Positions 1-64,000 of a stretch of DNA of 64,000 nucleotides are shown here, in pieces. A model generated the notes under the pieces. That model did not search any database, was not told the origin of the DNA, and worked only from the letters and a program-made list of their open reading frames with translations. A program made the translations under genes and the position numbers. Position 1 is the stretch's first letter; each line of letters starts with the position of its first letter. The DNA is from Gallionella sp. (lineage in GTDB: Bacteria; Pseudomonadota; Gammaproteobacteria; Burkholderiales; Gallionellaceae): positions 1,358-65,357 of the forward strand of contig JAQTYN010000003.1 of the NCBI GenBank assembly GCA_028688275.1. Direction: 5' to 3'.

Positions 1-2
1 GG

Positions 3-266
3 ATGGAACTGGCGGAGGTGCGGCAAGCCTTGTCCGAAGCCAGCGCGGGGATTGGGCGGGTCACGACACCTGCGCAAACGTTGGTGCGGGCAGCACGGGT
101 AAAAACAGGTTTGTCGCAACAGGCTTTTGCCGATCGCATCGCCACCCCCGTGGCAACCTTGCGCGATTGGGAACAAGGTCGATTTTCACCACCTGGTGGG
201 ATTCTCTGTCTGCTGCGGTTACTTGAGCGACATCCTGATTTAAGCGATGAATTGGCGTTGGCGTAA
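3..266 (+). CDS. XRE-family helix-turn-helix protein (HigA/NadS-like antitoxin), probably 5'-truncated by the window edge
   Basis: LSQQAFADRIATPVATLRDWEQGRFSP matches the XRE HTH 'WEQGR' signature. The frame is open to the window start. Confidence 0.8.
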   Translation: MELAEVRQALSEASAGIGRVTTPAQTLVRAARVKTGLSQQAFADRIATPVATLRDWEQGRFSPPGGILCLLRLLERHPDLSDELALA

Positions 267-306
267 GACATTCGCGTCAGCAATCTGCCTTTTTTCGCCC
301 CAATCA

Positions 307-331
307 GCGGGTTGCTCAACAGCGAACCCGC
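307..331. terminator. Hairpin between convergent TA genes, possible terminator
   Basis: GCGGGTT..AACCCGC stem with a T-run at 290-295. Confidence 0.4.
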
Positions 332-336
332 CCACC

Positions 337-423
337 TCAAGCCAACATCTCCAACCCATTCCGTTCCACAATATTCAGCAATTTCAAAGCAATACCGCTA
401 GGACTTTTCTCGCCGACTTCCCA
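337..423 (-). pseudogene. C-terminal remnant of a second XRE/HigA-type antitoxin
   Basis: The minus strand reads WEVGEKSPSGIALKLLNIVERNGLEMLA*, the typical HigA-like tail. There is an in-frame stop four codons upstream and no start codon. Confidence 0.65.
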
Positions 424-452
424 TTCAAGGCTTTATATTTGGGCGAATCAGC

Positions 453-1130
453 TTATTCAATCTGCTCAAAAATCAGCAATGCACACGCCACGCAAGTGGA
501 TTTGACGGTTTCCCAGTCATGCCAACGGGGGGCTAGGTTTTTGTATTCGGACAAATTAACGTCTTCTAAATCGTATGGCAGCGGATTGGCAAGCTGGATT
601 TGCAATTGTTGCAAGGCAGATTCACCGTTGGTTTGAGGATACAAACGGTCGAAATTTTGTAATGCTTGCACCAATGCGGCATCACCAATATGTGCCGCCA
701 GAGCAACAAAATCGAGATAATCGCGGGTGGCGTTGCGTTTGAGTATTAACACGCCTTTGATGCGCAAAATTTCCGCTTGTGTCGGCACGGTGATGGTTTT
801 GCCAAAACATTCGACTTGTGTGATTTCCAGCGGCTGTTCGCGAATCAGTTGTCGTATGCCCGTTTCAATGCCGTCCAAGCTCCCCAAAATTTGCACGGGG
901 CGTTGGACGCGGGCGGTTTTCCAGCCTGCAATGGATTCCAACTCTGCCAATATCGCATCGAAGCGCGGGCGTAGATCGGTTAAAACATGATCTGCATCCA
1001 CGGATAAGCGGTGTTCCGCATACAAAGCCGATGCCGTGCCGCCAACCAACACAGCGTCAGGCAAAATGCGTTGCAAACGCGCGGCAGAGGACAGCACTCG
1101 CTCCCAATCAGGCAAGTTGTTGTTCGACAT
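453..1130 (-). CDS. Nucleotidyltransferase, AbiEii/MenT-like (Pol-beta superfamily) putative toxin
   Basis: LVGGTASALYAEHRLSVDADH (GG..DxD) and K..KRNATRDYLD motifs. The ATG at 1130 overlaps the end of the upstream small ORF. Confidence 0.75.
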   Translation of the reverse strand: MSNNNLPDWERVLSSAARLQRILPDAVLVGGTASALYAEHRLSVDADHVLTDLRPRFDAILAELESIAGWKTARVQRPVQILGSLDGIETGIRQLIREQPLEITQVECFGKTITVPTQAEILRIKGVLILKRNATRDYLDFVALAAHIGDAALVQALQNFDRLYPQTNGESALQQLQIQLANPLPYDLEDVNLSEYKNLAPRWHDWETVKSTCVACALLIFEQIE

Positions 1131-1329
1131 AGTGTTTCCAAAGATGGTATCGCTGGGCGTAAGGGTCGTGGGTATGCGCGCCGCATACGCGGAGAATCTT
1201 TTCCAGCAACAGCGGGTTGTCCAGCACCGCATGGCGCAAGCCTGACCAGTCTTGTCGTTGACCACGCCCAATCACGTCGTCAATGGCTGCGAGGGTGAAA
1301 TTTTGGTGGTTTAGGTGGCGGTGTTGCAT
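1108..1329 (-). CDS. 73-aa hypothetical protein, putative cognate antitoxin of the nucleotidyltransferase
   Basis: ATG-started ORF overlapping the NTase start by 23 nt, the usual antitoxin-toxin layout. Confidence 0.7.
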   Translation of the reverse strand: MQHRHLNHQNFTLAAIDDVIGRGQRQDWSGLRHAVLDNPLLLEKILRVCGAHTHDPYAQRYHLWKHYVEQQLA

Positions 1330-1543
1330 GATTTTGGGGTAAAAAGTGAGGAGGTCGAATTATATACCGTTGCCTTATTTTTTTACCCATCACCTTCTCA
1401 ACACTCGCATCGGTTTAAACGCACACCTTAGTCAAATTGCGCTTAAGATAAGCACTTGCATCCAAAGTATAAGCAACTGGGTGTGATGCAAATATCCGTA
1501 ACTTCCCTTGCGCCTTGAAAAGCGCGTCCAACAGGAGATAATC

Positions 1544-2560
1544 ATGACGATTGCAGATGAACTACAAAGTACGATAGACCAGATGGTGCAGCGCGGCAAA
1601 GGCATACTGGCGGCGGATGAGAGCCAGCCGACTATTGCCAAACGCTTTGCTGCGATTGGGGTGGAAGCGACGGCGGAGCATTGTCGAACTTACCGTAGCC
1701 TGTTGTTTGCCGCACCTGGGATTGAGGAGTACATCAGCGGTGTGATTGAATTCGAGGACACTCTCGCGCAGACTGATGATGCTGGCGTGTTGCTACCTAT
1801 GGTGTTGGCGCAGCGCGGCATTGTGCCAGGGGTGAAGGTCGATAAAGGCAAAGGAGCGTTGGCACTGTCACCTGACGATTCGATTACTTACGGTTTGGAT
1901 GGATTGGCGGAACGCTTGGCGCACTATAAAAGCCAAGGCGCGTGCTTTGCCAAGTGGCGAGAAGTGTATGCGATTGGTGAACATTTCCCTTCCGCACTGG
2001 GCATCACTGCCAACGCCGAAATGCTGGCACGTTATGCAGCCGTTTGTCAGGAACAAGGTATCGTGCCCATCGTCGAGCCAGAGGTGCTGATTGACGGCAA
2101 TCACAGCATGGCGCGCTGCGCCGAGGTGACCGAAGCGGTGCAAAAGGAGATTTTTCACGCGCTGCACCGCCATCATGTGGTGCTGGAACACATCATCCTC
2201 AAACCCAATATGGTGCTGCCAGGCAAAGATCATCCCGTGCGCGCCAGTGCCGAAGCCATCGCAGCCGCCACATTGCAAGTTTTCCGCCGCACCGTTCCCA
2301 TGGCAGTCCCTAGCATCAATTTCCTGTCAGGGGGCTTGAGTCCAGAAGCGGCAACCGCCAACCTCAACGCCATGAATGTCGCCATGCCGAATGCCCCTTG
2401 GCTGCTGTCATTTTCTTATGGTCGCGCCCTGCAAGAGACCGTGTTGCAAGCGTGGCAGGGCAAAGCCGAAAACATCGCCGCCGCCCAACAAGCCTTGTTG
2501 AAACGCGCAAGACTGAATGGCGCAGCGCAACGGGGTGAGTATTCATCGGCGATGGAGTGA
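1544..2560 (+). CDS. fba: Class I fructose-bisphosphate aldolase (eukaryote-like family)
   Basis: GKGILAADES, FAKWR, PIVEPEV, LKPNMV, FLSGG and FSYGRALQ motifs. AGGAG RBS precedes the ATG at 1544. Confidence 0.95.
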   Translation: MTIADELQSTIDQMVQRGKGILAADESQPTIAKRFAAIGVEATAEHCRTYRSLLFAAPGIEEYISGVIEFEDTLAQTDDAGVLLPMVLAQRGIVPGVKVDKGKGALALSPDDSITYGLDGLAERLAHYKSQGACFAKWREVYAIGEHFPSALGITANAEMLARYAAVCQEQGIVPIVEPEVLIDGNHSMARCAEVTEAVQKEIFHALHRHHVVLEHIILKPNMVLPGKDHPVRASAEAIAAATLQVFRRTVPMAVPSINFLSGGLSPEAATANLNAMNVAMPNAPWLLSFSYGRALQETVLQAWQGKAENIAAAQQALLKRARLNGAAQRGEYSSAME

Positions 2561-2577
2561 TTTTTGTTGAGTGAATT

Positions 2578-2677
2578 GTAGGGGCGGATGCGTGGGCGCA
2601 TGTTTTGCAGCAGCTTGTTAAGGTAAAATCAGTCGCAAATCATTTTATCTTCTTTGTGTGCTACATCGTGCCCACGC
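2578..2677. repeat. Degenerate GTAG-type REP doublet
   Basis: GTAGGGG..GCGTGGGCGCATG pairs imperfectly with CATCGTGCCCACGC. Confidence 0.4.
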
Positions 2678-2694
2678 TTTAATTCCTAATCTAC

Positions 2695-3990
2695 ATGAAT
2701 CTAAATCAAAAAATAGCCATAATCGGCGGTGGCTACGCGGGCATGGCGGCGGCGGTGACACTGGCGCAGCGCGGCGTTGCCGTCACCGTGTTTGAAAGTG
2801 CCAAGCAACTCGGCGGACGGGCGCGGGGTGTGAGCTATCAAGACACGCAATTGGATAACGGGCAGCATTTGTTGCTGGGCTGTTATCGGGAAACTTTGCG
2901 CCTGATTGAGTTAGTCGGCGGCAATATCGAACAAGACTTTGTGCGCTTCCCGCTGCAATTGGAGTTGCATGAACAGTTTTCCTTAAAAGCCCCCAACTTG
3001 CCCGCACCGCTGCATTTGTTGGTGGCGTTTGTGCAGGCGCAAGGGCTGACGTGGGCGGATCGTTTGAAGGCGGCGGGGTTTATGGTGCGCTTGCAACTGG
3101 CGAAGTTTCGTTTGGATCAGTTGCAACGCGGCATGACGGATTGCACCGTGGAGGAACTGATGACCCGTTATGGGCAAACAGGCGATCTGACCTTAAAGCT
3201 GTGGGAACCGCTGTGCATCGCCGCTTTGAATACGCCCATTGCACAGGCTTCGGCGCAAGTGTTGCTGAATGTGCTGCGTGATTCGCTGAATCAAACCCGT
3301 GCCGACAGCGATATGTTGTTGCCGCGTATGAATTTCACCGCCTTGTTTCCGCAACGCGCCGCGCAATATGTGGAGGCGCAGGGCGGAAAAGTGCATCTTG
3401 TGTGTGGTGTTGAAACGCTACGGCAAGTCGAGCATGGTTTTGAGCTGACTACGCCGCAAGGCACGGAATTGTTCGATAAAGTCATCTGCGCCACCTCGCC
3501 CAGCGTCGCCGCGCGCTTGCTACGTGACACGTTGGACGTGAGTTTAATTGCCGCTTTGCCGCAACAACCGATTTACACCGTGTATTTGCAATACCCCGCC
3601 GAATGCCGTTTGCCCACGCCGATGTTGGGCTTGCATCAGTGCACTAGCCAATGGCTATTCGACAAAGGACAAATCGCGGGGCAGCACGGCTTAATCGCCT
3701 CGGTGATTAGCGCGGAAGGCTTGCACCAAGAGTTAAGCCAAGACCAGCTCGCACTCGCGGTTGCAGCTGAACTCCAACAAAAATTTGCCTTCCCCGAAGC
3801 CCCCGTTTGGTACAAAGTCATCGCCGAAAAGCGCGCCACCTTCTCCTGCAACGCTCACCTCGTCCGCCCCGACCAATGCACCAGCGTGTCAAATTTATGG
3901 CTGGCGGGCGATTACACCGCAGGCGATTATCCTGCCACCTTGGAAGGCGCGGTGATGAGTGGGGTCAAGTGCGCGAGGGAAATTTCGTAG
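2695..3990 (+). CDS. hpnE: Hydroxysqualene dehydroxylase (FAD-dependent oxidoreductase)
   Basis: IAIIGGGYAG FAD motif, LGGRAR, DNGQHLLLGCY, EKRATF and AGDYT..YPATLEGAV. Confidence 0.85.
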   Translation: MNLNQKIAIIGGGYAGMAAAVTLAQRGVAVTVFESAKQLGGRARGVSYQDTQLDNGQHLLLGCYRETLRLIELVGGNIEQDFVRFPLQLELHEQFSLKAPNLPAPLHLLVAFVQAQGLTWADRLKAAGFMVRLQLAKFRLDQLQRGMTDCTVEELMTRYGQTGDLTLKLWEPLCIAALNTPIAQASAQVLLNVLRDSLNQTRADSDMLLPRMNFTALFPQRAAQYVEAQGGKVHLVCGVETLRQVEHGFELTTPQGTELFDKVICATSPSVAARLLRDTLDVSLIAALPQQPIYTVYLQYPAECRLPTPMLGLHQCTSQWLFDKGQIAGQHGLIASVISAEGLHQELSQDQLALAVAAELQQKFAFPEAPVWYKVIAEKRATFSCNAHLVRPDQCTSVSNLWLAGDYTAGDYPATLEGAVMSGVKCAREIS

Positions 3991-4020
3991 GTCGAGTAAG
4001 GTGATTGCACCGTACCCGAC
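3987..4020 (+). repeat. GTAG-type REP hairpin overlapping the hpnE stop
   Basis: GTAG followed by GTCGAGTAAGGTG-ATTG-CACCGTACCCGAC imperfect palindrome. Confidence 0.6.
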
Positions 4021-4145
4021 TTTTTTGAGGTTCTTGTTGGGCTGCGTTATAAAACCACAAACACGACCAGAGTTTATACGTTGCATTCATACTTTGAATA
4101 CGCTACATTATTCTCCATTAACTTCCTACTTTTTAGGAGACTATT

Positions 4146-4370
4146 ATGTATGCGGAAAAACTGTCTGTTTCGATTCCTGCGGGACTCGTTGGATTTATTG
4201 AACAATATCGCGCCACGCACGCGCTCAAAAGCCGTTCTCAAGTGATCGGGGCTGCGCTGGAATTGCTGCGTCAGCGCGAATTGGAAACGGCGTATCTCGC
4301 CGCCAGCCAAGAAGTCGATGCCGATTGGGAGCAAACCACAGCGGATGGGTTGAATCATGAAACGTGGTGA
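4146..4370 (+). CDS. Ribbon-helix-helix (CopG/MazE-type) antitoxin
   Basis: KLSVSIP..SRSQVI..AL RHH pattern and acidic tail. It overlaps the toxin start and has an AGGAG RBS. Confidence 0.85.
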   Translation: MYAEKLSVSIPAGLVGFIEQYRATHALKSRSQVIGAALELLRQRELETAYLAASQEVDADWEQTTADGLNHETW

Positions 4371-4692: not shown

Positions 4693-4706
4693 AAATAACA
4701 TGGAGA

Positions 4707-4925: not shown

Positions 4926-4986
4926 TGGTAAACTTGCCCCCGCGTGCTTCAATTTAAGTTAGCAAATTTTCAGCACATAGCTTTAA

Positions 4987-5350: not shown

Positions 5351-5392
5351 GTAAGGCAGTTTCGCGCAGCAACCCACCAAAATAGGACGAAT

Positions 5393-6402: not shown

Positions 6403-8421
6403 ATGTCAATAAAAACCTTCCCCAACAGCCCGTACCGCCTACATCAACCCTTTGAACCTGCTGGCGATCAGCCGACGGCGATTGCGCAGTTGATCGAGGG
6501 GATTAACGACGGGTTGGCGTTTCAGACTTTGTTGGGGGTGACGGGGTCGGGCAAGACGTTCACAATGGCGAATGTGATTGCGCGGACGGGGAGGCCTGCG
6601 ATGGTGATGGCACCGAATAAGACGTTGGCGGCGCAATTGTATTCCGAGATGCGTGAGTTTTTCCCTGAAAATGCGGTGGAATACTTTGTTTCCTACTACG
6701 ATTATTACCAGCCCGAAGCCTACGTGCCGTCGCGGGATATGTTTATCGAAAAGGATTCGAGCATTAACGAGCAAATCGAGCAGATGCGGCTGTCGGCGAC
6801 TAAGGCGATTTTGGAACGGCAAGATTGCATTATCGTGGCGACGGTGTCGGCGATTTATGGCATTGGCGATCCTGTGGATTATCACGGCATGATTTTGCAT
6901 TTGCGGGCACAGGAAAAAACCAGCCAGCGCGACATGATTAAACGCTTGATTGATATGCAATATGAGCGCAATGAGCTGGATTTTTCACGTGGCAAGTTTC
7001 GGGTGCGCGGCGATGTGATTGATATTTTTCCTGCGGAAAGCAACGAATTCGCGCTGCGTGTCACGCTATTTGATGACGAAGTGGAAACACTCGCGCTGTT
7101 TGACCCACTGACGGGGCATATTTTGCAAAAAATGCCGCGCTACACGGTGTATCCGTCCAGCCATTATGTGACCCCGCGCAGCACGGTGTTGGGCGCGATT
7201 GAAACCATTAAGACTGAACTTGCGTCCCGCATTGCGTTTTATCAACGCGAAAATCAATTGGTGGAAGCCCAGCGTATTGAGCAGCGCACGCGGCACGACT
7301 TGGAAATGCTGAATGAAATCGGCTTTTGCAAAGGCATTGAAAATTATTCGCGGCATTTGTCGGGACGACCCGAAGGAGCTGCGCCACCAACCTTATTGGA
7401 CTATCTGCCGCCCGACGCGCTGATGTTTCTGGACGAAAGCCATGTGATGATTCCGCAAATCGGCGGGATGTACAAAGGGGATCGTGCCCGTAAAGAAAAT
7501 CTGGTGAATTACGGCTTTCGGTTGCCGTCGGCGATGGATAACCGCCCGCTGCGCTTTGATGAATTTGAAGGGATGATGCGCCAAAGCGTGTTTATTTCTG
7601 CCACGCCTGCGGTGTATGAAGCCGAACATGCAGGGCAAGTGGTGGAGCAAGTGGTGCGCCCGACGGGGTTGATTGATCCTGTGATTGAAGTGCGTCCTGC
7701 CGTTAATCAAGTCGATGATTTAATGTCTGAAATTCGCTTACGTATCAAAGCGGGTGAACGGGTGTTGGTGACTACCTTGACCAAGCGCATGTCGGAAGAT
7801 TTGACCGACTATCTTTCCGAACACGGCATCAAAGTGCGTTATTTGCATTCCGACATCGAAACGGTGGAGCGCGTGGAAATCATCCGCGATTTGCGCCTTG
7901 GGATGTTCGATGTGCTGATTGGGATTAACCTGCTGCGCGAAGGGCTGGACATTCCCGAAGTGTCGCTGGTGGCGATTTTAGATGCGGACAAAGAAGGCTT
8001 TTTGCGCTCGGAACGCTCGCTGATTCAAACCATCGGACGCGCTGCCCGTCATTTGCACGGCAAAGCCTTGTTGTATGGTGACAAAATTACCCGCTCCATG
8101 CAGGCGGCAATTAGCGAAACCGACCGCCGCCGCGAAAAACAAATCGCCCACAACCTCGCCCACGGCATTACCCCTGTTGGTGTGCAAAAACGCATCAAAG
8201 ACATTATCGAAGGCGGCTATGAGTCCGATGTGGCGCGCAGCGATCTCAAAATGGCGCAAAGCAAGGCAAAATATCAAGCGATGAGCGAGAAGGAAATCTC
8301 CAAAGAAATCACCAAGCTGGAAAAATCCATGCTCGAAGCTGCCAAGAATCTGGAATTTGAAAAAGCCAGCGAATTCCGCGACCAATTACGCAAGCTGCGG
8401 GATAGTGTGTTGTTGGGGTAA
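6403..8421 (+). CDS. uvrB: Excinuclease ABC subunit B
   Basis: [35 protein letters not shown] and C-terminal UVR motif. Confidence 0.99.
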
Positions 8422-8590: not shown

Positions 8591-9970
8591 TTAGTATTCT
8601 ACGTGTAAGCGAACCGCATATACCTTTATGGGTCCGCGATCTGCGTTATAGGCAGGATTTTGGATATGCTGATAATCGGTCGTCAACCAAGCCCCACGGA
8701 ATAAGTTAAAGCTGTAATAACCCTCGACGATGGTTTCGGGTTGATAGCGCAAGCCTTTATCACCAATAAAGAAGGAAATTCCACCTGCCTCAAGAAATTG
8801 CCGGCGTTCAGTGGAAAGTGTGTTGCGCATCAAGGCGATGCCTGCGCCATCTTCGCTACGCCCCCAAACGTTGCCTTTGAGGGTAAGACCCGTCGCCAAC
8901 GAGCCGTCGACTTCGGTAAATGCCAAGGTTTCTGTTCGTCCATCTGCTTGCATGACGCGCAAGAAATAGCCGATACCATCAGTCATTTCTTGTTCCACAT
9001 TGATGCCTAGACCGTACTTAATTTTTTCTGTGCCTCGAACGGCCAATAGTGCGTCTGGACCTGTGTACTGCCCAGGATGTCCTTTTAACCATGTGAGCGC
9101 ATCGTTAAAGCTTGCCATTTTGGCGCGATTTCGCCAGCCCAGCATCCTGATTTTTCCAGGATGACCTTGCCATTGATGTGCGTGTTCAAGTTCAATTTGG
9201 TCGCCATAGTGATTACCTAATGCATAATCGGTGGGCAGCCCATTAGGGTCTTTCGGACCTGACATGCGTCCGAAACGTAATACCCAATCCTGTTGATACC
9301 ATTCTGCGGCAAAGCCAAACCCAAAGCCACGTGCATCTGCGGCATAGTCGTAAGAGGCGTAGGTCCATCCTCCCCAGTTCATAAATTGTGTATGAGGATC
9401 TTTCGCGTATAGATTGGGATCGAACACATCGAGGGTAGAGAAATTGCCTACCGTTAAAACGAAGCGATTTTTATCGACCATGCCTGCCAGTTGATTTTGG
9501 TTGGAATCTAGTTGCTGGGAGTCACCCCCTTGATTCCAAGTTTGTCTCAAAAATAGGCGTTGGCGATACAGTACAGGATTGGTGCCTGCTGCGCGCGTAA
9601 TTTCACCATTGGTAAAACTACCCAGTCCCACTAAGTTGGTCGAGAATGGCACGCCCTGAGAAATTTCTGGATTAAAATATATTTCCCCATTATCCCAAGG
9701 TCGAAATCCAAAAAATCCCGTCGTTGTGAAGGTGTACATCTTCTCCGCACCCGAAATAATGCTGTTGGGACCAGAATAGGCTGCTGAATAAGCGGGATGC
9801 TTTTGCCAGTTATAGGTAAGTTGTAGTCTAGCAGTATTTTCCTCTATGAGAGGTGCAGTGTGCGCCTGACAACTAAACGAAAAAGATAAGCCCAGCAACA
9901 GCATGGACAGGTGCGAGACGGAGAAGCCTCCTCCACGAGAGGCGGCAGATTGCAGTTTCATGATTGACAT
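8591..9970 (-). CDS. Carbohydrate-selective porin family protein (OprB / MnoP-like)
   Basis: Signal peptide, EIYFNPEISQG, DPHTQFMNW..YDYAADARG and C-terminal YAVRLHVEY beta-signal. Confidence 0.75.
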   Translation of the reverse strand: MSIMKLQSAASRGGGFSVSHLSMLLLGLSFSFSCQAHTAPLIEENTARLQLTYNWQKHPAYSAAYSGPNSIISGAEKMYTFTTTGFFGFRPWDNGEIYFNPEISQGVPFSTNLVGLGSFTNGEITRAAGTNPVLYRQRLFLRQTWNQGGDSQQLDSNQNQLAGMVDKNRFVLTVGNFSTLDVFDPNLYAKDPHTQFMNWGGWTYASYDYAADARGFGFGFAAEWYQQDWVLRFGRMSGPKDPNGLPTDYALGNHYGDQIELEHAHQWQGHPGKIRMLGWRNRAKMASFNDALTWLKGHPGQYTGPDALLAVRGTEKIKYGLGINVEQEMTDGIGYFLRVMQADGRTETLAFTEVDGSLATGLTLKGNVWGRSEDGAGIALMRNTLSTERRQFLEAGGISFFIGDKGLRYQPETIVEGYYSFNLFRGAWLTTDYQHIQNPAYNADRGPIKVYAVRLHVEY

Positions 9971-10178
9971 CCTTTAGTTATTGTTCTTAATTTTTTATTT
10001 CTTGGCCAAAGAAATATACAATACAGGCCGCTAGGTTTATTGTTATAGATTATAATAACAAGTTAAAACAACAACCTAGATTATTGCATCTCAGGAATAG
10101 TGGTCAATCAACCTTTCCAGATCAACATCGTTCAAACGCGGTTTCAAAGGGCGTGAAGATGCATAAAACAGATTGCAA

Positions 10179-13100
10179 TTACTGCTGTTCGTACCCTCTC
10201 CGCGCTTCATCCGCAAATTTAGGGAATAACATAGGTAATAGCAATAAGGTAAAGATCGTACCTGACACAATCCCGCCCACAATCACCACTGCAAACGGAC
10301 GTTGTGTTTCAGAGCCTGCACCATGGGACAGCGCGGCGGGCAACAACCCTAAACCAGCCATCAAGGCAGTCATCAGGATGGCGCGCAAACGAGTCACAGC
10401 ACCATCCAGCACGGCTTCGATCACTGATTTGCCTTTCATGATTTCAAGCATAAATTCTTCGACCATGATGACCCCGTTTTGCACAGAAATCCCGGCCACT
10501 GCGATAAAACCGACCGCAGCGGAGACGGACATATGCAATCCTGCCAAGCCTAAGCCCGCGAATCCACCGATAAAGGTAAAAGGCACCATCAGCAGCACCA
10601 GCACCGCTTTACTCGTGGAACGGAATGCCCAGAACAACAGCACGAAAATCAGCATCACTGATATAGGGACAATGATTTTTAAGCGAGCGACCGCACGTTG
10701 TTGATTCTCGAACTGACCGCCCCATGTTATTTCATACCCTGGTGGCAGTTTCACTTGTTCATTCACTTTCGCCATGGCTTCTTCGACGAATCCACCTTGG
10801 TCTCGATTGACTAAGTTAGCCTTGACTGCAACTAATCGTCCACCATTTTCCCGACTAATCCGCCCCGCGCCCTGCTTGACCTGAATATCTGCAATAGAGC
10901 CTAAAGGAATCGTCGGTGTCGTATCGACAGGCGCATTGTCCGCATTTGGATGATTTTGATCTGATGGCGGTAGGGGGGGTAAATTAATTGGCAAATCTGC
11001 TACATCATCTACCGCATCACGGAAACCACTACTTAATCGTAAGGTCACATCAAATCGTCTATCCCCTTCATAAAACACATTGACGCCATCGCCCGCCAGC
11101 GCGGTTTGTATGGTGCTGTTGACATCGGCCACATTGAGACCATAGCGCGCCATCTGTTCACGATTCAAAATGATATTTAACTCGGTTTGACCGCCAATTT
11201 TAATTGCCGCGACATCAGTTGCGCCTTTAATACTACGCAATACATCTGCAATTTGTTCGCTTTTATCTTCCAAAATTTCCAAATCTGGCCCATAAATTTT
11301 GACTGCAATTTCCCCTTTTACGCCCGACAAAGCTTCCTCCAAATTATCTTGAATAACTTGTGAGAAATTGGTTGGCACCCCTGGCATTTTGTGTATCTCT
11401 GCCTCCATGGCTGCAATAAGACTTTCCTTATCATGGAACTGTGGTCGCCAAGTGCTTTTATCATTTAAGTCGGCCATGACTTCTAAATTGTTGAAACCCT
11501 TGGGATCGGTTCCATCGTCAGGTCGTCCCACTTGGGTAATGACATTATTAATTTCGGGATAGGAAGTTAATATCGTGCGAACGCGTTGTTCCACTTCTTT
11601 GGTTTTTTCAAGTGCGGTAGCGGGTGGTAAAGTAATGGTGAGCCAGATATTGCCCTCATCCAACTTTGGCAAAAACTCACTGCCCAAGCGAGGTGAGAGA
11701 AGCAAGGTGATTACTAGCAATCCAACGGAGAAGCTTACGACCCAACGACGTTTATCTTGCGACCACATTAACAGGCGCAGGTAGCTGACTTGTAACGAGT
11801 GCATCCAATCGCTATGTTTTTCGGCGAGGTCACCGTTCTTGATGGCATAGCTCATGAGCACGGGTATTAAGGTCAGCGTCAACAGCACTGCACCTAATAG
11901 TGCAAAAGTTAACGTAAATGCCATAGGGGAAAAAATTTTCCCTTCCACGCGCTGAAACGTGAAAATGGGCATGAACGCTAAAATAATGATGCCTTTGGAA
12001 AAGAGAATCGGTGTACCCAATTCAATGGCTGTCTTTTTCAACGCGTGAATACGCCAAGGATAGTGCCCCTGCTGTGGGAATCTTTCTGGATTGGCGGTTG
12101 CTAATCTCACCATCAGTGCTTCAACCAACACCACTGCACTGTCGATAATAATCCCAAAATCCACCCCCCCTAGTGATATCAAGTTAGCAGATACCCCTCG
12201 CAAATCCATCAAAATAAAGGCGAATAAAAGCGACAAGGGGATAACCGTGGCGACTGCCAATGCGGCTTGCCAACTACGTAGGAATACGATCAGAATGGCC
12301 ACCACGAGTAGGGCACCCACTAACAGATTTTCGACTACCGTATGTACCGTGTGGTCAACCAGTAACGTTCGATCATAATAAGGAACGAGCCGAACCCCTT
12401 CAGGGAGTTTATGATCGAGATCTTCAATTTCTTTTTTGAGCTTACCAACTACTGTCGTGGCATTTTGTCCTTTAGTCATCTGAACAATGCCTTGCACGAC
12501 ATTGCCGCGCTCGTTAAATGCAACCATGCCCGATAAAGGGCGTGGACCAATGGCTACTTCAGCCACATCGCTGACTAAAATTCCCCGTCCTTGGCGTGTT
12601 TCAATCACTACGCGACCAATGTCGTCCAAGCTTTGAAAGAGTCCAATGCCACGAATGACCAATGCCTCATCCCCGCGCCGCATCACACCGCCGCCACTAT
12701 TGGCACTGTTTGAGGTTAACACCTTGGCGACCTGATCTATCGTCACGTTATACTTGCGCAATAAATAGGGTTTAATGCGAACTTGATACTCTTTAACTTC
12801 CCCACCGAAACCGATGACATCTGCAATTCCTGGCACCGTACGCAATGCAGGACGTATGACCCAGTCTTGTAGTGCGCGCACTTCTCTTGCGGGCATGGTG
12901 GCGGGTGCTTCGATTACATATCGAAAAACCTCACCAACCGCATTCGTGAGTGGCGCAATGCTGGCATTGATGCCAGGCGGGAGGTTTACATTTTGTAATT
13001 TTTCTAAGGTTTGTTGGCGGGCAAAGTAGTCATCGGTACCATCTAAAAATGTCAGGGTAACTATAGACAAGCCCATGATAGAAACGGAACGTAGTTGTGT

Positions 13101-13337
13101 CATTCTTGCGACACCGCTCATTTCTCGTTCAATCGGTAATGTAATGGCTCGCTCAACTTCCTCAGGGGCAAGTCCAAGGGCTTGTGTGACCACTTGCACT
13201 TGGACATCCTGCACGTCAGGTGAGGCTTCGATAGGCAGATTGCTCCATGCGACTGAACCTGCTAACACAAGAGCCGCCGTTGCGATCAAGACAAAAACGC
13301 GCTGTTGCAGCGCAAAAGTAATAAGTTTTTCTAGCAT
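10179..13337 (-). CDS. CusA/CzcA-family heavy-metal efflux RND transporter
   Basis: LPIEASPDV, DFGIIIDSAVVLVE proton-relay motif, RLRAILMT and SETQRPFA. Confidence 0.95.
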   Translation of the reverse strand: MLEKLITFALQQRVFVLIATAALVLAGSVAWSNLPIEASPDVQDVQVQVVTQALGLAPEEVERAITLPIEREMSGVARMTQLRSVSIMGLSIVTLTFLDGTDDYFARQQTLEKLQNVNLPPGINASIAPLTNAVGEVFRYVIEAPATMPAREVRALQDWVIRPALRTVPGIADVIGFGGEVKEYQVRIKPYLLRKYNVTIDQVAKVLTSNSANSGGGVMRRGDEALVIRGIGLFQSLDDIGRVVIETRQGRGILVSDVAEVAIGPRPLSGMVAFNERGNVVQGIVQMTKGQNATTVVGKLKKEIEDLDHKLPEGVRLVPYYDRTLLVDHTVHTVVENLLVGALLVVAILIVFLRSWQAALAVATVIPLSLLFAFILMDLRGVSANLISLGGVDFGIIIDSAVVLVEALMVRLATANPERFPQQGHYPWRIHALKKTAIELGTPILFSKGIIILAFMPIFTFQRVEGKIFSPMAFTLTFALLGAVLLTLTLIPVLMSYAIKNGDLAEKHSDWMHSLQVSYLRLLMWSQDKRRWVVSFSVGLLVITLLLSPRLGSEFLPKLDEGNIWLTITLPPATALEKTKEVEQRVRTILTSYPEINNVITQVGRPDDGTDPKGFNNLEVMADLNDKSTWRPQFHDKESLIAAMEAEIHKMPGVPTNFSQVIQDNLEEALSGVKGEIAVKIYGPDLEILEDKSEQIADVLRSIKGATDVAAIKIGGQTELNIILNREQMARYGLNVADVNSTIQTALAGDGVNVFYEGDRRFDVTLRLSSGFRDAVDDVADLPINLPPLPPSDQNHPNADNAPVDTTPTIPLGSIADIQVKQGAGRISRENGGRLVAVKANLVNRDQGGFVEEAMAKVNEQVKLPPGYEITWGGQFENQQRAVARLKIIVPISVMLIFVLLFWAFRSTSKAVLVLLMVPFTFIGGFAGLGLAGLHMSVSAAVGFIAVAGISVQNGVIMVEEFMLEIMKGKSVIEAVLDGAVTRLRAILMTALMAGLGLLPAALSHGAGSETQRPFAVVIVGGIVSGTIFTLLLLPMLFPKFADEARRGYEQQ

Positions 13338-13338
13338 A

Positions 13339-14496
13339 TCAAATAACGCCAGATAATTCAGAGTTCAACAACAACGCGCCTGTTGTAACGACTCGCTCAT
13401 TGATACGTAGTCCTGTTTTGACGAAGCTGTATTCTCGTCCTTGTATACTGAGCGACACTCGTCGGCGTTGAAATACCCCAGGAGATAACTCCACGAATAG
13501 GTAGCTGGAAACCCCTTGGGTAAAGATGGCGGAGTTCGGTACTCTAGGTAATTCAGAGGCGCGCTCAGAAATAGGCGTTACACGCGCAAACATTTCAGCC
13601 TTCAATTTATTTGGCTTGTCGTTGACTAATTCACAGCGCACCTGGATACGTCGTGTTTGTGGATCAAGCACATCCGCAATCACCGTCACTTTGCTATCAA
13701 AGAACTCGTTAGGATAAGCATCTACTTCGACCCGCATGGTTTGTCCAACTTTTACTTTATCGAGATATTGTTCGGGCAAGTCTACGATGACCCACAAGTT
13801 TTTGGGGTCGGTAATGACGAAAAGGGGATGCGTGGCATCTGGACGAACTTCTGTACCCGCATTTACTTGACGTTCACTCACTACTCCAGAAATAGGGGAG
13901 CGTAAAATAAAATGCCGATCAACCCCATTGAGTCCTAAATTTTGCAATCGTGCTCTTGTTCGTTCCGCCTCTGCTTGGGCTTGTTGGAGATCCGCATTAG
14001 CGGTATCAAGTTCACGTTGCGCAATACCTTTGCTTTTAATGAGCAACAAGTCACGTTCATAAACCTGTTCTCGATTCGCTAAATCTGCTTCTGCCTTAGC
14101 AAGCTCAGCTTCAGCTGTAGCAAACTCAGGGGAATCAATTTCAACCAAAGGTGCACCCGCTTTCACGAACTGTCCTAGTTCGGCAATAATGTTAGTGACA
14201 CGCCCTGCCAAAGGTGTATAAATATCCGCCGTGTGATTGTCATCGTAATCAAGACGCGCATTTAACGAGTCAATCGCTGGCTCAGGAAAGGCTTCGGCGA
14301 CTTGCACCTTCAAAAAGGCTAACTGGGGCGCGGTATAGGGATAAGTAATGGTGTCTGACTTCGCTGCCTTAACTGGTTCCACCGTGGCAGGGGGAGGCGC
14401 AGTGAGGGTAACATAGGCTTTCCAGCCCAAAAAACCGCCCACGACCAATAAAGGTACAGCGATTAACCAAGTCTTCTTTGTTGTTATTGTAATCAT
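13339..14496 (-). CDS. RND periplasmic adaptor (CzcB-like)
   Basis: N-terminal anchor, SPISGVV lipoyl halves and LDPQTRRIQVR. Confidence 0.92.
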   Translation of the reverse strand: MITITTKKTWLIAVPLLVVGGFLGWKAYVTLTAPPPATVEPVKAAKSDTITYPYTAPQLAFLKVQVAEAFPEPAIDSLNARLDYDDNHTADIYTPLAGRVTNIIAELGQFVKAGAPLVEIDSPEFATAEAELAKAEADLANREQVYERDLLLIKSKGIAQRELDTANADLQQAQAEAERTRARLQNLGLNGVDRHFILRSPISGVVSERQVNAGTEVRPDATHPLFVITDPKNLWVIVDLPEQYLDKVKVGQTMRVEVDAYPNEFFDSKVTVIADVLDPQTRRIQVRCELVNDKPNKLKAEMFARVTPISERASELPRVPNSAIFTQGVSSYLFVELSPGVFQRRRVSLSIQGREYSFVKTGLRINERVVTTGALLLNSELSGVI

Positions 14497-16109
14497 TGAA
14501 TTGACTCTCCAGAAACAGGTACAGGTACGACATTTGAAACAACAGGAGACAAAGCTGATACAGACACACCGTCTCCATCAGTACGATTCCACCATCCCCC
14601 ACCTAATGCTTGATACAAGGCTGCTGTGTCACCTAATCGATTGGTTTTTGCTTGAATCAAATTGATTTCAGATAATTGATATGCTTGCTCAGCTGCAAGC
14701 TGAGTTTGATAGTTTACCTGACCAAGCTGATATTGCTGACGTGTTAATTCGAGTGCATGTTGCGCGGCTTGCGTTGACTTACTCGCAGCGTGCAGTGCGT
14801 CAGCATCCGACTGTATGGTGTATAGCGCATTGGCAACATCTTGCAAAGCAACCATGACAGTGCTGCGATATTGGGCATCGGCCAGAATGACAGCTTGTTG
14901 CGCTGCGCGTGATTTTGCTTTTAAAGTGCCTCCATCAAAAATTGTGGCGGCGACATTGCCCGCTATATTGAAAAACCCACCCCCATGTTTGAACATCCAG
15001 TCTGGCGAGGTCGCCATTCCGCCTATGCCAGCCACTAATGCGAATTGAGGAAAGCGATTGGCCTCTGCGACACCAGCTTGTGCACTGGCAACATGAAGTT
15101 GAGCCTCTGCTGCCCGCACATCGGGACGCTGTTTAACCAGCTTAGAGGGCAAGGTTAAGGGGAGTTCTTGAGGTAGCTGTAGATCTGCTAATTCAAATTT
15201 TTCGGTTAACTCAGCATTGGGAGCCTCTCCTGCTAAAGTGCGCAGTAGGTTGCGGGTCAGTTCCAGTTGTCTTTTTAGTGGGATTAATGACTGCTCGGCA
15301 ATCGCCAAGGCGGATTCTTGTGCGGCAACTTCCATTCCCGATGTATAGCCTAATTTTAATTGGGTATTCTGGATGCTCAGATACTCTTGATTCACTTGAA
15401 CCACTTTTTCTGCGGCGGCTATTTGTGCGCGCAATGAAGCTTCTTGTAGGGCTGCAGCAACGACATTATTGCTCAGACTAAGATAAGCCGCTTCTAGTTG
15501 CAGTTTTTGCACTTCAATCTGCGCCTCAGCAGATTCCATCATGCGCCGATTTAAACCAAATACATCTGGCACATAACCCACCGTCAATTGCGCGACATGA
15601 AAGCTGTAATAAGCAGGGGCATTAAACACAGGACCGTTGGGGTTGTTATAGACTTGAATGTTTTGACCATTCGCCTGTACGCCAGGGGAGTTTCCCCCCA
15701 TATTCCCTGCCAACTTATTACGCGAAGGGGTATAGCTCACCCCTACCGTAGGGTAAAAGAATCCTTGTTGCGCATTGGCATACTCTTGCGCCTGGTTTAA
15801 CGCGGCTTGAGCTGATTCAATTGAAGGGTTGTTTTTGAGGGCGCGCTGAATCAAAGAATTGAGCTGCGGAGAACGAAACAGCGTCCACCAATCATGGGGT
15901 ATATCGATTGCGGTATTAAAGTGTTGTGACTCACCCAAGTGCCCTGATGTGGTGATGGTTTTTTCGGGGGCAGCGGTGTCGGCATATCGATCACTCTTGG
16001 GTGCTTCGGGTCGCTTAAAGTCTGTTCCAACCGCGCAACCTGTCAGCGCAGTCAACATGATCCAACTGGACAGTGATAATTTGAAGTTTTTTGTTCGTGC
16101 AATAGCCAC
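14493..16109 (-). CDS. Outer-membrane efflux channel, NodT family lipoprotein
   Basis: Lipobox LTGC, WWTLFRSPQL, LVKQRPDVRAAE and LYQALGGGW. Confidence 0.93.
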   Translation of the reverse strand: MAIARTKNFKLSLSSWIMLTALTGCAVGTDFKRPEAPKSDRYADTAAPEKTITTSGHLGESQHFNTAIDIPHDWWTLFRSPQLNSLIQRALKNNPSIESAQAALNQAQEYANAQQGFFYPTVGVSYTPSRNKLAGNMGGNSPGVQANGQNIQVYNNPNGPVFNAPAYYSFHVAQLTVGYVPDVFGLNRRMMESAEAQIEVQKLQLEAAYLSLSNNVVAAALQEASLRAQIAAAEKVVQVNQEYLSIQNTQLKLGYTSGMEVAAQESALAIAEQSLIPLKRQLELTRNLLRTLAGEAPNAELTEKFELADLQLPQELPLTLPSKLVKQRPDVRAAEAQLHVASAQAGVAEANRFPQFALVAGIGGMATSPDWMFKHGGGFFNIAGNVAATIFDGGTLKAKSRAAQQAVILADAQYRSTVMVALQDVANALYTIQSDADALHAASKSTQAAQHALELTRQQYQLGQVNYQTQLAAEQAYQLSEINLIQAKTNRLGDTAALYQALGGGWWNRTDGDGVSVSALSPVVSNVVPVPVSGESIQ

Positions 16110-60311: not shown

Positions 60312-60428
60312 ATTTTTTCTCAGAAATCGCTGATTAATTCCGAACATACCCTCGACAAGCTTTGGAAAAGCAGATTTAATCAGAGCTCCCCTCAGTTGAC
60401 AATTGCAAATATAAATACACTCGCAAGC

Positions 60429-61589
60429 TTAAAACACTTGGTCGTAACTGACCGTCAATAAATCAACATGCCCCAAAGGCGTCACCGCATTCGGATTGGC
60501 GGTAAAAAAGGCGGGATCAGCCTTGTTTTGCCAACGATCAAATTGCAACTTAACAGCACTCACGTGGGAAAGATCATAGCGCAACAAAATTGAGGTCGTA
60601 CTATGCGCTTCTGATAACAGTGCATCAGGGGCAAGTAGTGCTTGGTAATAATTATGGAAACTTATCATTGGCAGCCAATGACCTAAATGGTAGCCCAACG
60701 AGTAAGATTGACTAAAATCCTCTCCATAAGATGCACGGCGGTCAATATACATAAACTCTGTGCGTACTACCCAATGTTGGTTATCAGCATTTAGCGAGGC
60801 ACTGTAAATGTGCTGCGGCGTTTTGGCACCCAACACCAACGGATCGGGGGCAAATAGATCGGTATTCTGAATATCCGATTGGATATATGCCACACGCGCT
60901 TCAAACCAATCTTTGCTTAAACTCAAATCCGCACCGATAATGTTAGACCAGCGACTATCCGTTCGGGTATTTAGCCCATTGTACATTTGCCAAAAGCGAC
61001 TATTTTTGACCTTTTCTTCGCCCGCAAAAAAATTCATGGCAGCGTACCAGTCATTCCAATCGTCTTTGTACAAGACGTTCAGTCCGTTGTAATTCACGAT
61101 CTCCCAACCATACACTTGTTGCGCCAAATGTACCCAAGGATAAGTCCATCCCACATCTTGCGATTCGGAGTGATCAAGCAGAGGCAAACGCTTGCGTCCG
61201 ACCTGCAAAGTCAATTTGTCGTTGAGCTTCCAATCCGCATACAGCCATTCAAAATCAAGCTGCCCCCCCGCTGCCCCCCGCGCCACGATCTGCCCCGTAA
61301 CGGATAGACGTGGACTAAACACAGCGGATCCCTGCAAGCCCAACTTGGTATCGGGTTGCCATTGCACACCGCCTTGCTGGTAAACCCCACCCTGCGCTAA
61401 GTCAGACAAAAAGCAAGGGCAATGGTAAGAGCCAAAGGGCTGGGCAGCACCATGATTAAGGATAGTACCCGCCGACAAAGTTAAGAAACCCGAACCCTGA
61501 AAATCCACGCCTGCCATCTCAATCGCTGCCGTTATGGGCGAAGTTAAAACTCCAAACATGAAAAATGGGAGTGTGTATTTCAAGCGCAT
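60429..61589 (-). CDS. Putative outer-membrane beta-barrel porin, paralogue 2
   Basis: Long near-identical stretches with paralogue 1 and C-terminal YDQVF. Confidence 0.75.
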   Translation of the reverse strand: MRLKYTLPFFMFGVLTSPITAAIEMAGVDFQGSGFLTLSAGTILNHGAAQPFGSYHCPCFLSDLAQGGVYQQGGVQWQPDTKLGLQGSAVFSPRLSVTGQIVARGAAGGQLDFEWLYADWKLNDKLTLQVGRKRLPLLDHSESQDVGWTYPWVHLAQQVYGWEIVNYNGLNVLYKDDWNDWYAAMNFFAGEEKVKNSRFWQMYNGLNTRTDSRWSNIIGADLSLSKDWFEARVAYIQSDIQNTDLFAPDPLVLGAKTPQHIYSASLNADNQHWVVRTEFMYIDRRASYGEDFSQSYSLGYHLGHWLPMISFHNYYQALLAPDALLSEAHSTTSILLRYDLSHVSAVKLQFDRWQNKADPAFFTANPNAVTPLGHVDLLTVSYDQVF

Positions 61590-61694
61590 AAAAATGCTTC
61601 CATCACAAAATTGCATTGCGAGCTATTTATACAATTAAAATCAATTGATTGAATAAGAATCTTCGGAAACAAACCAAAGAGATCATCGTGTGAA

Positions 61695-62435
61695 TTACAC
61701 CGCAGCCCGCTGTCTTCGACTTTCAAATAAACAAATGCCCGCGCTGACAGAAACATTCAAACTCTCCACGCTGCCCATCATCGGGATGCGCACCAGCTCA
61801 TCGCAAGTTTCACGAGTCAGACGGCGCAAACCTTCGCCTTCCGCACCCAACACCCATGCCAGACCACCCGTATGTTTGAATTGATGCAAGTCTTGCGTCG
61901 CTTCGCCCGCCGTCCCAACCACCCAAATATCGTGTTCTTGTAACTCCCGCAAGGTACGCGCCAAGTTGGTCACGGTAATGTAAGGCACGGTTTCTGCTGC
62001 GCCACACGCTACTTTTTCAACTGTGGCAGTGATGCCCACGGCGCGATCTTTGGGCGCGATGACCGCATGTACCCCAAACGCATCGGCACTCCGTAAACAC
62101 GCGCCCAAGTTGTGCGGGTCTTGCACACCATCCAACACTAAAATCAACGGCGGTTCTTCCAAGGTTTCTAATACGTCCGACAAATGCTGCACGCGTCGCG
62201 CCGCATCCACCCGCGCTGCGATACCTTGATGCCGCGCCCCGCCCGCCATGCCATCCAAACGCGCTGCTTCAATGGGAATCATGCGCACATTGCTGTCTGC
62301 TGCCAGCTTGATGAGATCGCGCATACGCGGGTCTTGCCGCTGCGCTTGGAAATACACTTCCATCACGCCTTCAGGATTTTGGCGAATGCGCGAGGTGACG
62401 GCATGGAAACCATAAATTAAACGTAAATCAGCCAT
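61695..62435 (-). CDS. rlmB: 23S rRNA (guanosine(2251)-2'-O)-methyltransferase
   Basis: [25 protein letters not shown] and ESLNVSV. Confidence 0.98.
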
Positions 62436-62468
62436 GTTTGCTGTCTTTCTAAAGTGGGATATTTGTTT

Positions 62469-62560
62469 TTAGTCGTTAGTTATTAGCTGTTGGCTATTAG
62501 TCGTTAGTCGTTAGTCGTTAGCTATTAACAACTAACGACTAGCAGCTAGAGACTAACGAC
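62469..62560. repeat. Inverted heptamer-repeat element (TTAGTCG)n/(CTAACGA)n
   Basis: Tandem TTAGTCG units followed by complementary CTAACGA units. Confidence 0.85.
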
Positions 62561-62566
62561 CAACCA

Positions 62567-64000
62567 CTACCCCAACCTAACTTGTAAGTTTAACTTAAAC
62601 AGAAACTTATTGTTTTCTCTGTAAATTTGTCCAAAGCGATGCCGCGTACTAGAAGGCGTGTCAAAAAAAGCGTGCTGGTAAAAATAATCTTTTAATTGCT
62701 GATAGTGGTTGGTGTGGTAAAAAACCAGCTCGCCATCTTGCCGTACAACTAACGCGCCATTCGCCGACAAATTGCCGTCCCATGTTTGATTCGGGAAAAT
62801 TCCTAGCATGGAATACTGAATAAAATCACGCAATCGAATATGCACGACAGTTACGTCGTCACTTGCCGCGAGGCAAGTCTTGGGATATTCCGCCAAGTAT
62901 TTGGTGATTTTCTTTCGGAAAAACGCCAGTAGTGCGTCCGCCATCATCGAGGGCATGGCGGTATCGACTTTGCGCAAATTGGATTCGTAAGTCTTGTTTT
63001 CACAACCGTAAAAATGAAACTGCCCACCTGCGTTCAAAATAGCAAGAATACGATCTTTGATTTTTGACTTGGTTTCGATGTGGTTAATATCATCAACCGC
63101 ATCTGGATTTAATCCACTGATTTCGTAAATAAAATTGGTGGCTTGCGACGCGTTAATCAACGTCGGATTCGCGCCTAAAAAGGACTTGATACCAATACCT
63201 TGATCGGCAAATAACAGATTTCCTTCTTCAAAATCCAGATGAAAATCTGCCTTGTCGCCCGAAGTGCCTTTGGTTTTGGTGAGTTGCAACAACTCCGTTG
63301 TTTGGGTAATTTTTTCGTTAGAGAAAGTTGCTTTACCCGCTTTAATTTCTTGCGCTAAGGCACTAATTTCCTCGCTCGAAAACAAGGCACTCAGGGCAAT
63401 TTTAGTGATGGTATCTGCGTGGATAATTTCAATATCCAGCGCGTTTAAATTCAACGCCGTGTCGCCATTTTTAATCCGAATCACCCGCACCGCATCGCTG
63501 GTGGGATTGCCTTGCGCATCGCCATAATGCAGCAAACGTTGATGAATGAGTTTAATCACCGCGTACAACTCACTTAATTCGCCTTTGTTACGAGTAATCT
63601 CCATATCATTCCCCCGTAAATTTTGCTGCATATAGTGCAAAGTGCTTTTCGCCACGGCAGACACGACATCTACGCACACGCTATTGCCCAGCTGTTTCAT
63701 CGCCTGCGTTTTAGAAACAGGAAATTGATAATCGGCGGGAAAGCCCATCATTTCGGTCGCTTCTTTTAAACCAATACGGCGCACTTCGTCATTAACCCGA
63801 TAAAATTCCCAGTTGCGCCTATCATCAATGACAGAACCTTTGCCGCCGACCCGTAAAGTGAAGCCGACTTTTTTCTCGCAAGGCGCGTTAAAAATATCCG
63901 ACATAGTTTTGGTCAGAAGCAACGGTGTAGGGAAGACAAATGGACGGCGCGTATCCACGCTACAGCGATCAAATCCCACGATAAAAACCCGTGCGCGATG
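62567..64000 (-). CDS. C5-cytosine methyltransferase C-terminus in frame with an HpaII-family restriction endonuclease (5'-partial)
   Basis: Frame is open from the window edge: HRARVFIVGF (motif VIII), MMGFP, AMKQLGNSV (motif X). It continues without a stop into MEITRNKGELSELYA..GDKAD..GIKSFLGANPTLINAS..DTPSSTRHRFG (ATG at 63604). Confidence 0.88.
   Translation of the reverse strand, partial: HRARVFIVGFDRCSVDTRRPFVFPTPLLLTKTMSDIFNAPCEKKVGFTLRVGGKGSVIDDRRNWEFYRVNDEVRRIGLKEATEMMGFPADYQFPVSKTQAMKQLGNSVCVDVVSAVAKSTLHYMQQNLRGNDMEITRNKGELSELYAVIKLIHQRLLHYGDAQGNPTSDAVRVIRIKNGDTALNLNALDIEIIHADTITKIALSALFSSEEISALAQEIKAGKATFSNEKITQTTELLQLTKTKGTSGDKADFHLDFEEGNLLFADQGIGIKSFLGANPTLINASQATNFIYEISGLNPDAVDDINHIETKSKIKDRILAILNAGGQFHFYGCENKTYESNLRKVDTAMPSMMADALLAFFRKKITKYLAEYPKTCLAASDDVTVVHIRLRDFIQYSMLGIFPNQTWDGNLSANGALVVRQDGELVFYHTNHYQQLKDYFYQHAFFDTPSSTRHRFGQIYRENNKFLFKLNLQVRLG

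Follow-up and report, generated by a model that had tools for sequence, protein, structure and literature searches.

What removed the tetranucleotide CCGG from the chromosome of Gallionella sp., an iron oxidiser, and is the restriction enzyme encoded in the same DNA responsible? We analysed a stretch of 64,000 nt (C88:1358-65357; 48.6% G+C), referred to here as the window, which holds only two CCGG sites and whose right-hand end lies within a gene that joins a C5 cytosine methyltransferase and an HpaII-family nuclease in a single open reading frame (ORF). Our results indicate that a long-resident and vertically inherited single-chain restriction-modification (R-M) enzyme with presumed CCGG specificity has probably caused this depletion through self-restriction.

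A count over the whole window gave exactly two CCGG, at positions 8801 and 10492, the same two that the original prediction had named. The number expected is 173 under a second-order Markov model, and 100 dinucleotide-preserving shuffles of the window gave 229.5 +/- 13.9, none of them falling below two; the earlier figure of about 250 was slightly high, which is immaterial to the strong deficit it described (Poisson P of two or fewer about 1e-71). CCGG has the lowest observed/expected ratio (O/E) among all 256 tetramers, in the whole assembly as well as in the window, where its second-order Markov ratio of 0.012 is nowhere near 1. Its one-base neighbours are plentiful and run to the hundreds as had been stated (ACGG 218, TCGG 245, GCGG 392), as does CCGC (393). 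Two further palindromes, unmentioned in the prediction, are also low, namely GGCC (45 vs 240 expected, 0.19) and GATC (165 vs 285 expected, 0.58). The window in its full length (1..64000, no strand assigned) represents CCGG-depleted core chromosome, with two sites against 173-230.

As predicted, the depletion extends across the genome (G000; a 3.16-Mb assembly of 112 contigs, 99.99% complete with 0.36% contamination). A total of 1019 CCGG were found in the assembly, 885 of which lie on ten contigs totalling 132 kb, where CCGG, GGCC and GATC alike show O/E of about 1. The remaining 3.03-Mb core contains 134 CCGG vs 8108 expected (O/E 0.017), together with O/E of 0.20 for GGCC and 0.62 for GATC, the latter against 1.03 in the foreign contigs. 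The CCGG-rich contigs comprise a phage of 59 kb (C8) with terminase, portal, family-A polymerase, ThyA-like protein and dCMP deaminase, a plasmid-like contig of 20 kb with a MobA relaxase (C85), an rRNA operon with 25 CCGG (C81), and short fragments. C8 and C85 may have been mis-binned from another cell. Survivors within the core are clustered in a TetR plus three-gene RND efflux operon (C107:49230-55646; 18 CCGG in 6 kb) and a type I R-M island on C106 (11 CCGG), with smaller clusters on C26, C75 and C41. The tRNA genes carry 11 CCGG in 3.7 kb, which is a normal density (3 per kb), and the RNase P RNA carries two; clearly recent DNA elsewhere in the genome also has normal CCGG density. Mapping against islands, as the prediction had proposed, finds sites retained in islands, the phage, the plasmid-like contig and the rRNA, tRNA and RNase P RNA genes. 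Constrained sequence and young DNA thus retain CCGG, which has been lost from the rest of the genome.

The sites disappeared from the genes by synonymous codon choice. In the core gene set (2305 crude longest-ORF calls, with expected counts from codon usage), CCG followed by G was observed 40 times vs 2727 expected, the junction xCC-GGx 39 times vs 4251, and xxC-CGG 32 times vs 1166, so that each of the three frames has an O/E of 0.009-0.027 and is 97-99% purged. The intergenic core has 23 CCGG. The codon CCG makes up 0.3% of Pro codons before G vs 25-47% before A, C or T; codons of the form xCC have a share of 0.2-0.7% before GG vs 28-43% elsewhere; and CGG accounts for 0.4% of Arg codons after xxC vs 10-14% otherwise. 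Another synonymous codon is used at about 8000 junctions, and the proteins are unaffected. The avoidance of CC-GG codon junctions that had been noticed in core genes is thus a context-dependent synonymous choice in all frames. The example given for it, the uvrB codons GTG ACG GGG TCG GGC, was quoted correctly; in this core gene (6403..8421, plus strand) ACG-GGG and TCG-GGC replace ACC-GGN and TCC-GGN.

The putative agent is a single ORF of 674 codons (C88:63924-65948, minus strand), with an N-terminal C5 methyltransferase (PF00145), a C-terminal HpaII-family nuclease (PF09561) and no stop codon between the two halves. Its 3' part occupies 62567..64000 of the window (minus strand) and contains no CCGG, and the ORF extends 591 nt beyond the window end. 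The nuclease domain, stop codon included, lies at 62567..63604 (minus strand), and the variable linker with the C-terminal part of the C5 methyltransferase, holding the short target-recognition region and motifs IX-X, at 63605..64000 (minus strand). The genome has a single match to PF09561 (RE_HpaII; C88:63930-64946, E = 7.7e-78), which scores 259.5 bits vs a cut-off of 25 and is full-length (profile positions 1-359 of 359). The resident HpaII-family enzyme of the original prediction is confirmed as a family member by this match, but it is a methylase-nuclease fusion and not an ordinary HpaII system.

The Gallionella metagenome-assembled genome (MAG) STB_49 has this continuous ORF as well. Over 120 protein clusters of 640-700 aa belong to the fused family; their sources are Sulfuriferula, Methylotenera, Formosimonas, Moraxella, Psychrobacter and many metagenomes. 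Among 22 aligned members the C5 motifs I (FxGxGG), IV (PCQ), VI (ENV), VIII (QxRxR) and X (GNSV) are invariant and so is the short target-recognition region, while the nuclease half retains an N-K-G-E-x-S-E helix and, with little or no variation, a K-A-D...I-K-S core. The linker of these 22 proteins differs in length between members and lacks a conserved internal Met or start, which, together with the continuous frame, shows that the product is a true single polypeptide. A sequence search of the PDB returned M.HhaI as the closest solved relative of the methylase half and no solved relative of the nuclease half. The methylase half shares 37% identity with its M.HpaII-like counterpart in the congener G013 and has a much shorter target-recognition region, and the nuclease domain is 27-36% identical to canonical HpaII-type proteins of about 357 aa. 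Judged from sequence, both halves of the fusion are presumably active. The family is natural, widespread and apparently uncharacterised. MnoI, a CCGG enzyme of Moraxella nonliquefaciens, may be a characterised member of the fused family; no paper in the searched library mentions it.

STB_49 carries the only relative of the nuclease in the genome collection, and its rnr and rlmB proteins are 98.5% and 98.8% identical to those of G000. Comparison of the fusion gene between the two genomes gave a ratio of nonsynonymous to synonymous divergence (dN/dS) of 0.083, with 0.072 for the methylase part and 0.096 for the nuclease part, and a synonymous divergence (dS) of 0.53, alongside 0.56 for the flanking rnr and 0.44 for rlmB. 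The low dN/dS and the flank-like dS show vertical inheritance over substantial time, with both halves under purifying selection. The gene encoding RlmB, an rRNA methylase of SpoU type (61695..62435, minus strand), is the downstream neighbour of the fusion gene. Seven other Gallionella species have rlmB immediately after rnr, with nothing at the insertion site, so the fusion gene is an insertion into this operon in the lineage of G000 and STB_49.

A metagenome contig with a fused gene, L103 (FZPY01000011.1:49747-61738), is mosaic. Its rnr-RM-rlmB segment has 88% nucleotide identity to G000 and no CCGG in 5.7 kb, and the adjoining hflX-hflK-hflC-purA segment has 70-72% identity and 38 CCGG in 6.3 kb. 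This locus was considered as a counter-example, with a fused gene and 38 of 38 CCGG in its flanks, and was rejected because all 38 sites are in the divergent hflX-purA segment. It represents either an assembly chimera or a transfer of the RM gene with flanking housekeeping genes into a non-depleted relative, and was left out of the host statistics.

Fused genes and canonical HpaII nuclease genes that stand alone were taken from genomes and metagenomes and their hosts compared, using flanks of up to 10 kb per side and, for the fused hosts, loci with at least 10 expected CCGG. The 12 hosts of fused genes, among them Moraxella, Formosimonas and metagenome hosts, have a median O/E of 0.027 and a maximum of 0.116, so that all 12 are at or below 0.12. 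The 35 canonical two-gene hosts have a median of 0.92 and a minimum of 0.17, with eight below 0.5. There is no overlap between the two sets (Mann-Whitney p = 1.6e-7), in a comparison that ignores phylogeny and in which several loci may come from related organisms.

The two kinds of genes also differ in their genomic setting. Each fused gene follows a co-directional housekeeping gene by a few nucleotides, and the location differs from lineage to lineage: between murC and ddl, after valS, between ribE and ribBA, between tyrA-aroA and rluB, or between rnr and rlmB. Canonical systems often adjoin integrases, relaxases and other island genes. The difference in depletion may be a matter of residence time, with fused genes inherited vertically in core operons and canonical systems turning over on mobile elements. 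By analogy with an engineered fusion discussed below, architecture may contribute as well, since a fixed 1:1 ratio of the two activities without separate control could make protection less reliable. The two explanations are compatible with each other.

The repair gene vsr was examined as a cause of this contrast. Canonical systems often carry Vsr, adjacent or fused to the methylase, and in the sampled loci of the fused family it is never adjacent. This candidate was rejected because many Vsr-less canonical hosts are also undepleted. In many canonical systems the methylase bears an N-terminal Vsr domain (PF03852+PF00145, 547-560 aa; L099:8322-10004, L101:8361-10004, and about 8290-8685 in L128, L129 and L131), which places repair of 5-methylcytosine (5mC) deamination in the methylase's own protein. 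Some of the fused-gene loci (L063-L069) nearly lack further palindromes: L069 has one GCGC of 22 expected and a HinP1I-type system next door, the Moraxella loci have 3-6 GCGC and CGCG vs 29-65, and GATC is found 7 times against 74 in Formosimonas. Purging of several sites is common in these small genomes.

Within the genus, 41 Gallionella species were sampled with 1-100 kb each. Normal CCGG content (O/E 0.7-1.3) was found in 37 of them, which have similar codon usage, and four are depleted: G013 (0.17 outside one stretch of 70% G+C), G028 (0.13), G102 (0.31) and G022 (0.32). In G000 and STB_49 the depletion is about tenfold deeper than in these four. A search of 80 congeners for PF09561 gave matches only in G013 and G102, both with canonical two-gene systems. 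An HpaII-family nuclease is therefore present in three of the five depleted species (G000, G013 and G102) and in no non-depleted species (Fisher p = 9e-4). The 70% G+C stretch in G013 (G013:C1:1-20000, L014) spans 20 kb and holds 311 CCGG, against about 50% G+C and CCGG depletion in the rest of that genome, and is either contamination or an island of foreign origin. In another genome, G131, the HpaII nuclease gene is disrupted (C1:100752-102833), with about 1.1 kb separating the parts for residues 1-42 and 87-359, and its host is still moderately CCGG-depleted (40 of 131 expected), which is consistent with a lingering trace of a dying system.

These observations suggest how the depletion could have arisen. 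With its gene lodged in the rnr-rlmB operon, the fused CCGG enzyme would long have been resident in the Gallionella lineage, and each chromosomal CCGG would have posed a small but persistent risk of self-cleavage, for example during a lag of methylation after replication, repair or recombination, or when the enzyme level shifts. Given such a risk at every site, silent variants that remove a CCGG would be favoured, and long residence would lead to the loss of about 98% of the sites from coding DNA, in its three frames, and from intergenic DNA. Survivors would be expected in constrained DNA (rRNA, tRNA, RNase P RNA) or in recent DNA (the phage, the plasmid-like contig and islands), and would be protected by the methylase half. 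Self-restriction is here the likely selective agent.

Several points weigh against this explanation. The methylase domain resembles M.HhaI more closely than M.HpaII-like enzymes and has a short target-recognition region, and the CCGG specificity deduced from homology and from the depletion itself is partly circular. Most canonical HpaII hosts are not depleted, and carrying a CCGG enzyme is not sufficient alone; the host comparisons, moreover, ignore phylogeny. The depleted species G028 and G022 have no detectable HpaII-family gene, both being incomplete MAGs. This genome has no match to Vsr (PF03852), and unrepaired 5mC deamination could contribute.

The depletion might also be a legacy, in that earlier CCGG systems of the subgroup, two-gene HpaII systems of the kind seen in G013 and G102, purged the sites and the fused gene was a beneficiary rather than the cause. 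The partly depleted relatives G013, G028 and G022 have an empty rnr-rlmB site, G102 is partly depleted too, and the two systems found belong to different HpaII lineages, that of G013 being located between lipB and lipA. A one-gene system would moreover have no obvious way to delay expression of the nuclease on entering a new host, for which a genome already poor in sites could be a precondition. However, the tenfold deeper depletion of G000 and STB_49 goes beyond that of these relatives, and the fused gene has been resident for a dS of about 0.5. A maximum-likelihood tree of UvrB, in which G000 is on a long branch, does not resolve the depleted species as one clade. A near-total purge is also found in 10 further fused-gene hosts of unrelated lineages, and pre-depletion would be needed in each of them. 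We regard the legacy account as unlikely. As a separate observation, the G000 branch in that tree has a length of 0.13, about five times the median of 0.023 for its congeners.

Mutational decay would work differently from self-restriction: 5mC in CCGG that is not repaired by Vsr would erode by C-to-T changes, with additional selection against hypermutable sites in constrained codons, and restriction would be inessential. The original prediction had left restriction and 5mC deamination open, and the codon contexts now point to selection acting on the site. With methylation of the inner C, the frame xxC-CGG has no synonymous C-to-T route, and with methylation of the outer C, neither CCG-G nor xCC-GGx has one, yet all three frames are purged. 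The products of deamination are not enriched either. Codons of the form xCT before GG make up 0.172 of the non-C codons of Ser, Thr and Ala, vs 0.238 in congeners without depletion and 0.252 outside this context, and CCA before G, at 0.226, is not raised. These equilibrium tests of codon context were used for the question because a substitution spectrum at ancestral sites was unusable, the silent sites being saturated and the nearest species only about 90% identical in UvrB protein. The distribution of Vsr is compatible with decay in part: like G000, the depleted genomes G013, G102, G028, G022, G433 and G131 lack it, and the canonical systems that often carry it have mostly undepleted hosts, whereas the fused family is never accompanied by it. 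But Vsr-less canonical hosts such as L121, L125, L127, L158 and L163 are undepleted, and GATC, which is no 5mC site, shows the same contrast between core and foreign DNA. As GATC is low in the core only, site-directed avoidance operates here independently of cytosine deamination. In a very large population, second-order selection against hypermutable sites may still play some part. Decay as the principal cause is improbable in our view.

A depletion unrelated to R-M, through a quirk of composition or codon pairs or an artefact of assembly or binning, is effectively refuted: the assembly is in 112 contigs, and those rich in CCGG might be binning errors and not mobile elements of this cell, but a single palindromic tetramer of 256 is affected while CCGN and NCGG neighbours abound, the deficit is seen on 100 core contigs and is absent in 37 of 41 congeners of similar codon usage, and in unrelated hosts, too, it accompanies the cognate enzyme family.

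The two CCGG that survive in the window are 1.7 kb apart and fall in a block of porin and RND efflux genes (8591..16109, minus strand) encoding OprB, AcrB, a membrane-fusion protein and an outer-membrane factor. The first (8801..8804, palindromic and without strand) is in the frame xxC-CGG (CGC CGG, Arg-Arg) of the OprB-family porin ORF (8591-9970, minus strand), and the second (10492..10495, likewise) is in the frame xCC-GGx (GCC GGG, Ala-Gly) of the AcrB-family RND pump ORF (10179-13337, minus strand). Later acquisition of this block had been proposed and is weakly supported: GGCC is less depleted in the block (10 vs 24.8 expected, 0.40) than in the remaining window (35 vs 215, 0.16), but CCGG is still about 85% depleted (2 vs 13.4 expected). 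The block is perhaps somewhat younger in this genome, though not newly arrived like the RND operon on C107. The latter sits within an otherwise CCGG-free contig and is clearly a recent horizontal acquisition, datable by its site density.

Two further loci outside the window were recorded. On the phage contig C8, which has 452 CCGG, a gene for a thymidylate-synthase-like protein adjoins the dCMP deaminase gene (L094:649-1949). Such a pair occurs in phages that make modified pyrimidines, and modified pyrimidines might explain how this phage survives a CCGG nuclease, if its host is this cell. At C72:6270-8167 (L096:1270-3167), a second R-M-like pair, with genes for a C5 methyltransferase (329 aa) and a NERD-domain nuclease (298 aa), is inserted between nusB and thiL of the conserved ribH-nusB-thiL-pgpA operon. 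This pair may be the cause of the GGCC depletion of the core (0.20). Defence genes placed inside housekeeping operons seem to recur in these genomes, as seen from the RM gene between rnr and rlmB, the nusB-thiL pair, and the methylase and nuclease genes between lipB and lipA in G013.

Restriction-site avoidance is a textbook phenomenon that is usually partial, and its cause is debated between self-restriction, post-segregational killing and deamination. Avoidance of restriction sites (palindromes) in prokaryotic chromosomes was reportedly described by Gelfand and Koonin in 1997 and by Rocha and colleagues in 2001. The present case is a real, extreme and unusually complete example of this known phenomenon, and resembles other cases in that a Type II recognition site is rare in the host, more deeply so with residence time, and foreign DNA is spared. 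It differs from the usual cases in its extent, with an O/E of 0.017 over 3 Mb for a 4-bp site and about 70 scattered sites plus islands, and in that the cognate enzyme is a one-polypeptide fusion. A canonical HpaII system has separate genes for M.HpaII and R.HpaII, often with Vsr, and recognizes CCGG with methylation of the inner C. The Gallionella enzyme shares with it a full-length PF09561 match, a C5 methylase directly upstream on the same strand, and CCGG as the presumed target. Unlike the canonical Type IIP arrangement of separate R and M genes, it is encoded in one continuous frame of 674 codons, with a shorter target-recognition region and without Vsr. Avoidance was found to grow with the lifespan of the R-M system by Rusinov et al. 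2015 (PMC4687349), who treated CCGG as an outlier and found it over-represented in Helicobacter despite CCGG systems.

Single-chain enzymes of this composition have an engineered precedent. RM.Eco29kI (PMC3039593) is a fusion with an m5C methylase and a palindromic target, in which the nuclease comes first, and it cut well and modified poorly in vitro. The proven natural Type IIC enzymes listed in the same work (PMC3039593) all have m6A (gamma-class) methylases, and most of them cut outside the site. The fused family resembles Type IIC in combining nuclease and methylase in one polypeptide, but its methylase is of the m5C and not the m6A type; unlike RM.Eco29kI, it is natural and widespread, and the methylase comes first. 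By analogy, RM.Eco29kI may be taken as a precedent for a fusion that raises the risk of self-restriction. Purging of restriction sites is also documented in phage genomes, including the avoidance of GATC and CCWGG of the T7 type (Rusinov et al. 2018, PMC6286503). The near-total loss of a short palindrome through synonymous codons is common to both situations. Here, however, the purged genome is that of the enzyme's own bacterial host, and the only phage contig (C8) is unpurged.

The new element is the consistent link of avoidance to natural single-chain m5C methylase-nuclease enzymes. Within one Pfam family it offers a clean natural contrast, between fused hosts with an O/E of at most 0.12 in 12 of 12 cases and canonical hosts with a median of 0.92. 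We tentatively raise a wider possibility, on which we are more doubtful than hopeful: the single-chain m5C-HpaII enzymes could form a distinct R-M class, whose hosts would be protected mainly by the near-absence of sites. With the two activities fixed at 1:1 and under no separate control, any CCGG left in the chromosome would be a constant hazard. Such enzymes would drive a near-complete purge of CCGG in each lineage where they settled, persisting vertically in housekeeping operons (between rnr and rlmB, murC and ddl, or ribE and ribBA, and after valS), unlike the canonical HpaII systems on mobile elements, which would leave the CCGG content of the host untouched. The self-restriction hypothesis is directly testable in E. 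coli, and CCGG density provides a simple marker for dating horizontally acquired DNA in these genomes. The fused family would provide the first natural single-chain R-M enzymes that are m5C-based and cut a palindrome, and these would be possible reagents. If the fusion itself causes the difference between the two kinds of host, how strongly a defence gene reshapes the host genome would depend on its architecture, down to the codon context of about 8000 positions.

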